Positions 1-3,150 are shown, counted from the stretch's first letter. The stretch is 64,000 bases of DNA from an uncultured Peptostreptococcaceae bacterium (GCA_964484935.1 CAZAFW010000001.1:135654-199653), one strand, 5' to 3'. Program-made: numbers and translations. Notes: generated by a model not told the origin, from the letters alone.

Positions 1-1290
1 GTTCTCACAGTTGGAACAAGAGTTGTACAATTCAGAAGAATTGGATTCGCATTCAAACTATTATTTTCAAAAGAATCGATGGGTGAAGGAGACATAACTC
101 CTTTCCAGGCGCTTATGACTTCTCTTGCCGCCACGATCGGCACAGGTAACATCGCCGGTGTTGCAACTGCATTGGCAATCGGTGGTCCTGGAGCCATCTT
201 CTGGATGTGGATAACTGCAGCAGTCGGCGGAGCAACAAAATACGGCGAAGCGGTTCTTGCTATAAAATACAGACAAACGAACGACAAAGGCGAAAAATCC
301 GGTGGACCCATGTACTATGCGTGGAAAGGCATGGAAGACAAATTCGGCGGAAACTGGAAATGGCTCGGTGGAGCTTTCGCAGTATTCGGATTCATTGCAT
401 CATTCGGAATAGGCAACATGGTCCAATCAAACTCAGTTGCAGCCGCAATGGAAGAGACCATAGGACTCAACCCTGTTATTTCAGGCGCAGTCGTTGCTGT
501 TCTTACAGCACTCGTTATACTGGGCGGAATCAAAAGCATCGGTAGAGTTACTGAAAAAATCGTTCCTATAATGGCTATAATATATGTACTCGGATCGCTT
601 TTCATTCTTTTCACAAATGCTGGAAAAGTCGGAATGGCATTCAGTCTTATTTTCTCTAACGCTTTCAACGCTAACGCAGTAAGCGGCGGACTCGTTGGAA
701 CTGTAATACGTATGGGTGTTGCACGTGGTGTATTCTCAAATGAAGCAGGACTCGGTTCAGCTCCTATAGCCCATGCAGCCTCAAAGAACGACAATCCTAT
801 CACTCAAGGGATCATAGCTTCTCTAGGCGCTTTCCTTGACACTATCGTAGTATGCTCGATGACCGCTCTCGTAATATTGGTTTCAGGGCTCCTTTCTTTC
901 GATGCAAACGGATTGATGTCAATAACTGACGAACTCACAGGCGCAGCGCTTACTTCAAGGGCTTTCGGGGTCGCAATGCCCGGATTCGGATCCTTCATAG
1001 TATCCTTCGGCCTCATGTTCTTCGCTTTCTCTACAATCATCAGTTGGTACTACTATGGATCGAAATGTGCTGAATTCCTCTTCGGCCTCAAAGCTGAAAT
1101 GCCTTACAAATGGGCTTGGGTTATTCTCACATACGTTGGCGCAACTATTCCTCTTGGATTTGTTTGGAACATTTCAGACGCATTCAACGGACTAATGGCA
1201 ATACCGAACTTGGTAGCGCTTCTCGCTCTCAGCGGATCGATCTTCAAATGGACCAAAGAGTTTGAAGCAAAGGAAAAGCTTAGCGCATAA
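1..1290 (+). CDS. sodium:alanine (amino acid:cation) symporter, AGCS family; 5' end outside window
   Basis: Frame 1 is open from base 1 (VLTVGTRVVQFRRIGFAFKLLFSKES then MGEGDITPFQALMTSLAATIGTGNIAGVATA...), so tracked ORF 79..1290 is a clipped view. It has the GTGNIAGVA motif and many hydrophobic segments typical of AGCS carriers. A hairpin terminator follows. Confidence 0.85.
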   Translation, partial: VLTVGTRVVQFRRIGFAFKLLFSKESMGEGDITPFQALMTSLAATIGTGNIAGVATALAIGGPGAIFWMWITAAVGGATKYGEAVLAIKYRQTNDKGEKSGGPMYYAWKGMEDKFGGNWKWLGGAFAVFGFIASFGIGNMVQSNSVAAAMEETIGLNPVISGAVVAVLTALVILGGIKSIGRVTEKIVPIMAIIYVLGSLFILFTNAGKVGMAFSLIFSNAFNANAVSGGLVGTVIRMGVARGVFSNEAGLGSAPIAHAASKNDNPITQGIIASLGAFLDTIVVCSMTALVILVSGLLSFDANGLMSITDELTGAALTSRAFGVAMPGFGSFIVSFGLMFFAFSTIISWYYYGSKCAEFLFGLKAEMPYKWAWVILTYVGATIPLGFVWNISDAFNGLMAIPNLVALLALSGSIFKWTKEFEAKEKLSA

Positions 1291-1302
1291 TTCACAATCA
1301 AA

Positions 1303-1335
1303 AGCCTGCCGGAATAATCCGGCAGGCTTTTTTTG
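1303..1335. terminator. rho-independent terminator between convergent AGCS symporter and selD
   Basis: AGCCTGCCGG-AATAAT-CCGGCAGGCT, a perfect 10-bp stem followed by TTTTTTT. It lies between two convergent stop codons. Confidence 0.85.
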
Positions 1336-1364: not shown

Positions 1365-2411
1365 CTACACAACCTCAATAAAAGTTGCTCCCTTTTCCTT
1401 AACCCTGCCAACTACCGCAAAATCAAGATCGAGAGTATTATTGAATATTTTCAAAAGTTTCTCGGCTTCAGCCTCAGAAAGGCTTATAAGAAGCCCCCCA
1501 GATGTTTGGGGATCATATAGTACATTCTGCCTGTCTATCGAAACCGATTCGGCAAATGAAGCTTCATTGCCTACAAAACCCATGTTCTTGTAAGCTCCTC
1601 CCGGTATTATTCCCATGCCCGCCATGTCGAATGTCCCTTCAATCACCGGAACCTTTTCCGATTCAATGACAAAAGTCATTCCGCTTCCCTTGGCCATTTC
1701 AAACACATGCCCAATCAGACCGAAACCTGTTACATCGGTGCATGCATTCACCTTCACCTGCAACATTCCTTCCGCGGCTTCGCGATTAAGCGTATTCATT
1801 ACCTTTACCGCCCTGTCCACAACTTCCTTTTCGAGCAAATCGGCCTTTATGGCTGTAGAAAGTATTCCGCTTCCGAGGGGCTTTGTCAAAATCAAAACAT
1901 CCCCCGGCTTTGCGCCTGAATTGGTTATGACTTTTTCGGGATGTACAAATCCGGTAACTGAAAGGCCGTACTTTGGTTCGTCGTCTTCCACGGAATGGCC
2001 GCCTATCAAAAGCGCACCCGCTTCTTTTACCTTGTCCGCTCCCCCTTTCAATATTTCTCCTAGTATTTTGATGTCAAGATACTTGGGAAATCCCACTATG
2101 TTCATTGCTATTACCGGTTTCCCTCCCATCGCGTAAACGTCGCTTAGGGAGTTTGTGGCCGCTATCTGTCCAAAAAGATAGGGGTCGTCGACAATCGGTG
2201 TAAAAAAATCGAGAGTCTGTATTATTGCAGTGTCGCCGTTTATCCTATATACTGCGGCATCGTCGGATTTATCGAATCCGACCAATAGATTTTCATCATC
2301 AAACTTAGGCAAATCTCGCAGAACCTGCGATAAGGTTTCAGGACCTATTTTAGCCGCTCAGCCGGAGCTTTTTGAAAGTTCCGTCAGACGCTTTATGCTT
2401 CTTTCATCCAT
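1365..2411 (-). CDS. selD: selenide, water dikinase (selenophosphate synthetase) SelD, selenocysteine-containing (in-frame UGA at 2358..2360)
   Basis: Tracked ORF 1365..2312 (…[14 protein letters not shown]…, AIR-synthase-like fold motifs) lacks the catalytic N-terminus. The same frame continues upstream through one TGA to an ATG at 2411 preceded by AAGGGGGA: [40 protein letters not shown]-x-x-K aligns with the Cys17/Lys20 motif of E. coli SelD. Confidence 0.85.
2316..2360 (-). other. UGA(Sec) recoding site plus candidate SECIS hairpin in selD mRNA
   Basis: TGA at 2358..2360 (minus strand). Hairpin UCGCAG-GUU-CUGCGA at 2316..2330 starts 28 nt 3' of the UGA. A weaker hairpin UAGGU-CCUGAA-ACCUUA lies closer. 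Which one, if either, is the SECIS cannot be decided by eye. Confidence 0.45.
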
Positions 2412-2423
2412 TTTTAATCCCCC

Positions 2424-3020
2424 TTAGTAAATGCGGATGCATTCTTCCATTTCCGCATAGGTTTTTTCACCTATACCCTTTATCTCCATCAGTTCTTCCT
2501 TGCTTTTAAACCCTCCGTTTTCCTGCCTGTATGCAACTATTCTTTCAGCATAAACAGGCCCTATTCCAGGCAGGTCTTCAAGAAGAGACTTGCTTGCCGT
2601 ATTTATGTTTACAAGACCTCCTCCAGTTTCCTCTTCCGTAAGTTCGTCACCCAACGCAGGAATGATTATCTTCTGCTGGTCATATGCCTTTTGCGCCAGG
2701 TTTATTCGCTTTGTGTCCGCAGTTTCCAAAAGTCCTCCGGCCATTTCCACGGCATCGAACACACGGCTGTCCAAAGGCAATTCATAAAAGCCCTCTTCCT
2801 CTACAGCTCCGCATATGTCGACATATATGAACTCCGAGTTTTCCTCCCCGGCATCCTGCAAAGTCGGTTCACTTTCGGTTTCAGATGCTTCCAAAAGCTG
2901 TTTTCTGACCATTGATTCGCGATCCTTTTTCAGTTTAAAACCCCATACGCCAACAAAAACTATGGCCGCGGCCAACAATATGATTGTTATCTTGAATCGG
3001 CTGTCTCTTCCCTCAATCAT
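2424..3020 (-). CDS. comEA: ComEA family DNA-binding protein (helix-hairpin-helix repeats)
   Basis: C-terminus LVNINTASKSLLEDLPGIGPVYAERIVAYRQENGGFKSKEELMEIKGIGEKTYAEM is the classic ComEA HhH pair, with an N-terminal TM segment. Start set at ATG 3020 (MIEGRD…) behind GGAGGGA. The tracked start at 3071 has no SD. Confidence 0.8.
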   Translation of the reverse strand: MIEGRDSRFKITIILLAAAIVFVGVWGFKLKKDRESMVRKQLLEASETESEPTLQDAGEENSEFIYVDICGAVEEEGFYELPLDSRVFDAVEMAGGLLETADTKRINLAQKAYDQQKIIIPALGDELTEEETGGGLVNINTASKSLLEDLPGIGPVYAERIVAYRQENGGFKSKEELMEIKGIGEKTYAEMEECIRIY

Positions 3021-3150
3021 GAGAAATCCCTCCGCAATTCGTGACACAATAATAATACCACATATATCCAAACCTGTGTATAAGCTCTTTCATGGAACAA
3101 GCGGAAGTTTTCTGCTATAATAATTAGTTGTAAAAGAAAGAGGTGATCAG

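Follow-up and report, generated by a model that had tools for sequence, protein, structure and literature searches.

The minus-strand gene at 1365..2411 of the window, by which we mean the whole 64,000-nucleotide stretch of DNA analysed here (C1:135654-199653 of the assembly of an uncultured Peptostreptococcaceae bacterium), encodes a member of the SelD, selenide,water dikinase, family with a predicted role in selenophosphate synthesis. It carries a single in-frame UGA in the column of Cys17 of E. coli SelD. We are highly confident in the overall reading, in which SelD would be translated from the ATG at 2411 with selenocysteine (Sec) inserted at the UGA by way of SelB and a downstream mRNA hairpin, hairpin B. 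The gene is a typical representative of Sec-type SelD, which is common in anaerobes, and its assignment is correct but not novel. In the passage of PMC1717018 that cites them, Guimaraes et al. (1996, PNAS 93:15086) are credited with the first report of a bacterial Sec-type selD, in agreement with the preliminary description of this DNA, which held that the type was already known in anaerobes and is not a new protein class. Only two features are mildly unusual, namely a distal SECIS loop near the published upper limit and a turnover of SECIS type among the orthologues.

Results

Reading frame and start of selD

Translation of 1365..2411 with TGA read as U gives 348 residues, of which U18 is the single recoded one (Table 1). 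A table-11 ORF listing contains solely 1365..2312 on the minus strand, a product of 315 aa opening at a TTG. The preliminary description maintained that this start removes the catalytic N-terminus, and that an ATG at 2411 opens the same frame. Alignment does place the Sec/Lys loop upstream of the TTG, and the sequence and its translation bear out the ATG; the coordinates and sequence statements of that description are correct throughout. Around the start the minus strand reads TAA-GGGGGATTAAAA-ATG GAT GAA AGA, and the Shine-Dalgarno-like AAGGGGGA (2425..2418) shares bases with the TAA stop (2426..2424) that ends the ComEA-like gene upstream.

Table 1. Features in and around selD (window coordinates) and related genes elsewhere in the assembly (contig coordinates, C). 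Loop positions count the U of the UGA as 1.
Feature	Location	Strand	Description and basis	Loop downstream of UGA
selD CDS	1365..2411	-	348 codons plus TAG stop, one in-frame UGA (Sec18); translation with TGA=U	
ATG start codon of selD	2409..2411	-	sequence; N-terminal peptide kept in five same-genus genomes and the wider order	
Shine-Dalgarno-like AAGGGGGA	2418..2425	-	6 nt spacer to ATG; read from sequence	
TTG taken as start by table-11 ORF calling	2310..2312	-	spurious start; would delete conserved Sec/Lys loop	
UGA, predicted Sec18 codon	2358..2360	-	counterpart of E. coli SelD Cys17; alignment to 3u0o and 2yye; TGA column 110/110 orthologues	
Lys21 codon	2349..2351	-	counterpart of catalytic-loop Lys20 in E. 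coli SelD; alignment; upstream of TTG start	
Hairpin A	2333..2346	-	AGGU-CCUGAA-ACCU, weak 4-bp stem, A15-U28; probably not the SelB-binding element	
Hairpin B, probable SECIS	2316..2330	-	UCGCAG-GUU-CUGCGA, 6-bp stem, U31-A45, loop G37-U38-U39; fold and covariation	GUU, 37-39
ComEA-like helix-hairpin-helix DNA-binding protein gene	2424..3071	-	ends with 12-nt gap before selD start	
agcS, amino-acid (alanine/glycine) carrier	79..1290	+	convergent with selD; TIGR00835 452 bits	
GC-rich hairpin, 14 bp	1300..1331	.	8 of 14 pairs GC; A-run/T-run flanks, T tail; sequence	
selA	C1:133842-135203	-	612.6 bits, cut-off 267.9; no internal stops	
selB	C1:131929-133803	-	366.8 bits, cut-off 242.25, full length; no internal stops	
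tRNA-Sec (selC)	C1:131752-131845	-	RF01852 70.2 bits (gathering score 47); ARAGORN tRNA-SeC, anticodon TCA	
selU, tRNA 2-selenouridine synthase	C42:3105-4001	-	TIGR03167 301.9 bits, cut-off 219.75	
GrdA	C10:27799-28272		CFVUTAAGAMD; PF04723 spans U	
GrdB	C10:26458-27768		TSTUGTCTRCG; PF07355 579 bits	GGU, 22-24
GrdB-like	C24:19276-20583		PF07355 546 bits	GGU, 22-24
PrdB-like	C2:113850-114704		TAGUGTC	GUUAUAG, 25-31
CopA-type P-type ATPase	C4:55151-57610	-	second HMA domain GMTUASC	GGGC, 29-32
Peroxiredoxin (Prx)	C92:2019-2783		FTFVUATE	AGUU, 21-24
TlpA/redoxin-like protein	C46:3189-3782	+	WYSTUPSC	
HesB-like candidate	C5:60216-60563		GVGUSG; no Pfam match, candidate only	UGGAC, 29-33

Protein family and the Sec column

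The profile check suggested in the preliminary description returned a full-length SelD above the cut-offs of both curated equivalog profiles for SelD, selenide,water dikinase. The read-through protein scored 408.4 bits against TIGR00476 (cut-off 125; profile positions 1-310 of 311) and 357.9 bits against NF002098 (cut-off 299; positions 5-345 of 347), with the AIRS domain PF00586 at 95.7 bits and AIRS_C PF02769 at 77.6 bits. Its best matches among solved structures were E. coli 3u0o (6e-77) and Aquifex aeolicus 2yye/2zod (9e-77). In E. coli 3u0o the residue opposite U18 is Cys17, within the G-A-G-C-G-C-K loop, and the one opposite Lys21 is Lys20, and in the Aquifex crystal chain 2yye U18 falls on the Cys of the SSG-C-AAK motif; the TGA had been assigned to the Cys17 column, with the Lys three residues later, and these two alignments agree.

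The E. coli protein, a Cys-type SelD, shares fold, length and catalytic loop geometry with the one described here, and its Lys20 is conserved, but it has Cys17 (G-C-G-C-K) where the present gene has Sec18 (G-U-A-A-K), without the second Cys. Aquifex SelD belongs to the same family, TIGR00476, and reads SSG-C-AAK[IV]GP against SSG-U-AAKIGP here. Bacterial Sec-type SelD likewise has the UGA in the Cys17 column and a SECIS shortly downstream within the coding region, and we found no categorical difference between the present protein and either Aquifex SelD or the bacterial Sec type. The gene differs from known Sec-type selD genes in the position of the SECIS loop, which at +37 comes close to the upper end of the published 16-37 nt, and in that selD and selAB-selC do not share an operon but are separated by a convergent agcS.

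Sec machinery in the genome

The preliminary description proposed a search of the genome for selA, selB and tRNA-Sec, and all three are present just past the left edge of the window, on the same contig and 2-6 kb from selD. Elsewhere in the genome TGA acts as a normal stop: it ends 336 of the 1002 ORFs of at least 300 codons, and there is no genome-wide reassignment. A selU gene also occurs, so that selenophosphate has two uses in this organism, in Sec and in selenouridine. A TIGR00476 search of the assembly (91% complete) for a second or Cys-type selD gave the window's selD as the sole match, which makes the proposed dependence of selenophosphate synthesis on its own product plausible. The idea of a possible SelD autoregulation goes back to Guimaraes et al. 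1996, at least as they are cited in PMC1717018.

Conservation of the UGA

The sample comprised 40 relatives: 6 belong to the same genus, and the other 34 represent 11 further families of the order. A selD match at E <= 1e-40 was present in 33 of them, and the best-scoring 30, the window's own included, each had a single TGA, no more and no less, inside the gene. An internal TGA is missing from three distant SelD homologues (41-44% identity; G013:C78:93041-93967, G024:C26:21254-22258 and G035:C3:32619-33635); presumably these are Cys-type or SelD-like proteins, and they are confined to one family (f8) of the order. A scan of GTDB species genomes added 80 further selD loci, the nearest of which (88-93% identity) come from MAGs labelled uncultured Peptostreptococcaceae or Clostridiales, while the remainder belong to Tissierellia and Clostridia at about 56-63% identity.

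In all 110 orthologous loci, from independent assemblies and many families, the TGA stands in the same column. The flanking peptide is conserved on both sides, LT.[LM][ST]..[SA]G before the TGA and A[AG]K[IL]GP after it, and the Gly codon directly before the TGA varies synonymously among orthologues (GGC, GGA, GGG, GGT). Conserved flanks together with synonymous variation indicate that the TGA is translated across, and they exclude a sequencing error or a pseudogene. We give hardly any credence to the alternative of a genuine stop codon, a pseudogene lesion or an error of assembly, with a truncated SelD made from the TTG at 2312 or the gene being dead. Such a reading would draw on the fact that ordinary ORF calling yields exactly 1365..2312 and that TGA is a common stop in this genome, but it is opposed by the recurrence of the same TGA in every one of these assemblies, by the conserved peptide around it and by the complete selA-selB-selC set that adjoins; moreover, a start at the TTG would delete the loop that holds the counterparts of Cys17 and Lys20.

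Hairpin B as the probable SECIS

The preliminary description named two SECIS candidates, UCGCAG-GUU-CUGCGA and a weaker hairpin at +13. The first (hairpin B) does start at the 28th nucleotide after the UGA, at positions 31-45 when the U of the UGA is numbered 1, and it was singled out by covariation; the +13 hairpin (hairpin A) did no better than slid controls. Single-sequence folding was no better than that of shuffled sequences (z = +0.58 for the 67-nt fold, at -12.5, and z = -0.59). An Rfam scan of 2150..2480 with E values up to 10 gave chance snoRNA-like matches only and no matching bacterial SECIS family. The choice of the SECIS thus had to rest on comparison.

Among 30 taxon-sampled sequences, 75.4% of the cells in the eight pairs of hairpin B (two outer pairs included) were paired, against 26-52% in slid controls, in which the partner strand was moved by 1-3 columns. 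Cells changed on both sides numbered 38 against 5-13, and the covariation score was 0.317 against at most 0.148. With 105 distinct sequences the values were 83.5% against 27-54% for pairing, 112 against 12-43 for double-sided (compensatory) changes, and 0.343 against at most 0.156 for covariation. None of 500 shuffles reached the pairing, the double-sided count or the covariation score of hairpin B, in either sequence set.

Five of the eight pairs change on both sides among orthologues. Each of the four Watson-Crick forms is found at pair 33/43 (AU 45, GC 22, UA 10, CG 4); base 33 falls on the third, synonymous position of an Ala, Ser or Thr codon, and base 43 is the first, amino-acid-changing base of a codon 10 nt on, the resulting codon pairings being GCA-UGY (Cys), NCG-CGN (Arg), GCU-AGY (Ser) and GCC-GGY (Gly). 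Pair 36/40 joins two synonymous sites (CAG/CAA with CUG/UUG). The patterns at these two pairs are inexplicable by selection at the protein level. The loop reads GUN in 86 of the 105 sequences.

The bacterial SECIS model (bSECISearch), as quoted in PMC13188914 (Fig. 2 legend), has an apical loop of 3-9 nt and an upper stem of 4-16 bp, a G in the first two loop positions, usually as GG or GU, a distance of 16-37 nt from the UGA to the apical loop, and an MFE <= -7.5 kcal/mol. On these rules, hairpin B passes with a loop of 3 nt, a stem of 6 bp, a loop starting G-U and a spacing of 33 nt. Its energy is -6.5 kcal/mol for the bare 15-nt stem and -12.5 in a 67-nt context, and the outcome at the -7.5 threshold accordingly depends on the stretch that is scored. 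A strict version of bSECIS, with a contiguous stem and the -7.5 cut-off, rejected 50 of 110 orthologues including the window's selD; since the energy rule seems to us too stringent where a bare stem is scored, this was not counted against the SECIS. The E. coli fdhF SECIS and the consensus model likewise have a stem-loop inside the coding region downstream of the UGA, its small apical loop starting G-U. Hairpin B differs from the fdhF element in having no sequence similarity to it, and from the consensus model in its triloop, which lies at the outer end of the allowed spacing, and in a bare-stem energy that falls short of -7.5. With a good deal of confidence, resting on these sequence comparisons, we take hairpin B to be the SECIS, and SelB is predicted to bind it.

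It is unlikely, in our estimation, that SelB instead binds the proximal hairpin A (2346..2333) or an element made up of both hairpins, with hairpin B serving some other role such as ribosome pausing or mRNA stabilising. The loop of hairpin A (+19..24) is at the loop position of the GrdB, Prx and PrdB-like genes of this genome, some SelD lineages have a proximal hairpin only, with its loop at +24, and on C46 the redoxin gene likewise shows a pair of hairpins downstream of its UGA. Against the rules in PMC13188914, hairpin A passes on loop (6 nt) and stem (4 bp) but fails on three, since its loop opens C-C, its spacing is 15 nt and its MFE is -1.9 kcal/mol. Nor is it distinguished by conservation: over 105 sequences its paired cells amounted to 60.8%, slides of +1 and +2 gave 60.2% and 59.8%, and its covariation score was 0.147 against up to 0.210 in slid controls. 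In many Tissierellia selD sequences (GAUAUAUUG) hairpin B is perfect and hairpin A essentially absent. A long proximal register (A', positions 17-33), obvious in some relatives, was also tried; at 52.7% paired it was no better than slid controls, and it was set aside as not general.

Changes of SECIS type among orthologues

On a maximum-likelihood tree of 106 SelD proteins, midpoint-rooted and hence giving no reading of the direction of change, hairpin B (loop at +37) occurs in 77 of the 106 rows, which are distributed across most of the deep clades. Eleven rows carry a long proximal hairpin of 7 bp whose loop is at +24 (GGCCGGA-UGU-UCUGGCC is one example); they fall in two separate, well-supported clades, one of which is nested, with 99/99 support, beside a hairpin-B clade. 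The selD genes of Clostridium sensu stricto have neither hairpin type, and Ile AUA replaces Val GUN in them. Well-supported branches force at least three changes of SECIS state, which indicates that the SECIS has been replaced in place while the UGA stayed fixed. A review (PMC13188914) notes that the SECIS elements of bacteria show little likeness from one gene or species to another, which fits such a turnover.

Other genes with an in-frame TGA

A genome scan looked for reading frames whose codon usage is good both before and after a TGA, and the candidates were then checked with Pfam. The expectation that ordinary (table-11) ORF callers would split other selenoprotein genes was borne out by seven Pfam-supported genes and one further candidate (Table 1). 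We conclude from the sequence that at least seven other genes carry a Sec-type TGA, and probably eight, which suggests that the Sec trait is in active use. Their families all appear in published selenoprotein family lists. Five other high-scoring read-through candidates (C1:194249-194722, C6:10389-11138, C14:18681-19748, C42:10540-10935 and C128:668-1525) were dropped as antisense or low-complexity-looking frames.

GrdA, both GrdB copies, PrdB-like, Prx, the redoxin and the HesB-like candidate each have a hairpin 15-35 nt downstream of the TGA. The selD loop, at +37, is more distal than the tabulated loops of the genome's other selenoprotein genes (+21 to +33), which calls for some reserve about hairpin B as the SECIS. 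In the redoxin-like gene two consecutive hairpins follow the UGA, with loops at +21..24 and +39..41, a two-hairpin layout as in selD; from these two genes the organism may have a composite SECIS architecture. The CopA-type ATPase has two HMA domains, the first with GMTCSAC and the second with GMTUASC, so that Sec stands for the first metal-binding Cys in the second domain only; a 'Cation-transporting ATPase, E1-E2' is already entered as a selenoprotein family in PMC1976440.

Gene neighbourhood

The 12-nt gap between the ComEA-like gene and selD makes co-transcription of the two probable. The functional pairing is odd, and the TAA stop of the ComEA-like gene lies inside the selD Shine-Dalgarno sequence. 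On the other side, the GC-rich hairpin at 1300..1331 is probably a bidirectional terminator common to selD and agcS. With agcS in between, selD is kept apart from the selA-selB-selC unit, whose orientation is divergent, and a glycine carrier beside Sec genes fits an organism with glycine reductase.

Clusters of selD-selA-selB-selC were reportedly described by Gursinsky and co-workers in 2000 in Eubacterium/Peptoclostridium acidaminophilum, among amino-acid-fermenting Clostridia. In the E./P. acidaminophilum cluster, as in the present one, a Sec-type selD stands close to selA, selB and selC, and both organisms have selenoproteins of glycine and proline reductase; the difference is that selD here is split from selA by an oppositely oriented carrier gene and directly follows a ComEA-like gene.

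Discussion

According to the mechanism that we propose, translation of selD would start at the ATG at 2411, and at the UGA (2360..2358) SelB with Sec-tRNA(Sec) would insert selenocysteine in place of termination. SelB would be recruited by the mRNA hairpin at 2330..2316, which presents a GU-containing triloop 33 nt past the UGA. Sec18 and Lys21 would form the N-terminal glycine-rich catalytic loop, and the selenophosphate produced would feed both SelA, for Sec-tRNA synthesis, and SelU, for tRNA selenouridine. We further infer a positive feedback, insofar as the sole selD found would need its own product.

The same self-dependence lends some appeal to the idea that the UGA is decoded mainly in another way, either as Cys carried on tRNA-Sec or by near-cognate Trp read-through, since this would be a possible selenium-independent start-up route for the first SelD molecules. 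Misinsertion of Cys or Trp at UGA does occur in other systems. Nevertheless, the complete set of Sec genes and the covariation behind the SECIS point to Sec as the selected reading, and SelD protein is inherited from mother cells, so that no separate start-up route is required; we consider decoding mainly as Cys or Trp very improbable. Insertion of Sec remains the reading that we favor.

Taking the orthologues and the genome together, a joint reading can be offered, tentatively and at somewhat less than an even chance. The distal hairpin B, widespread as it is, would probably be the older element in clostridial SelD and would have been replaced at least twice by unrelated proximal hairpins (+24). 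The SECIS would then turn over while the UGA is fixed, SelB would tolerate a range of 13 nt in the distance from UGA to loop, and a single Sec-type selD would constitute an obligate positive-feedback loop for the use of selenium.

Sec-type SelD is one of the two commonest prokaryotic selenoprotein families, and current understanding of it is unchanged by the present gene. For annotation, the proper selD product is 348 aa from 2411, not 315 aa from 2312, and at least seven, probably eight, other genes of this genome need UGA annotated as Sec to be read correctly. For the biology of the organism, the results mark this uncultured Peptostreptococcaceae-like anaerobe as selenium-dependent: it has reductases for glycine and proline, it has a gene for selenouridine synthesis, and its one selD would depend on itself.
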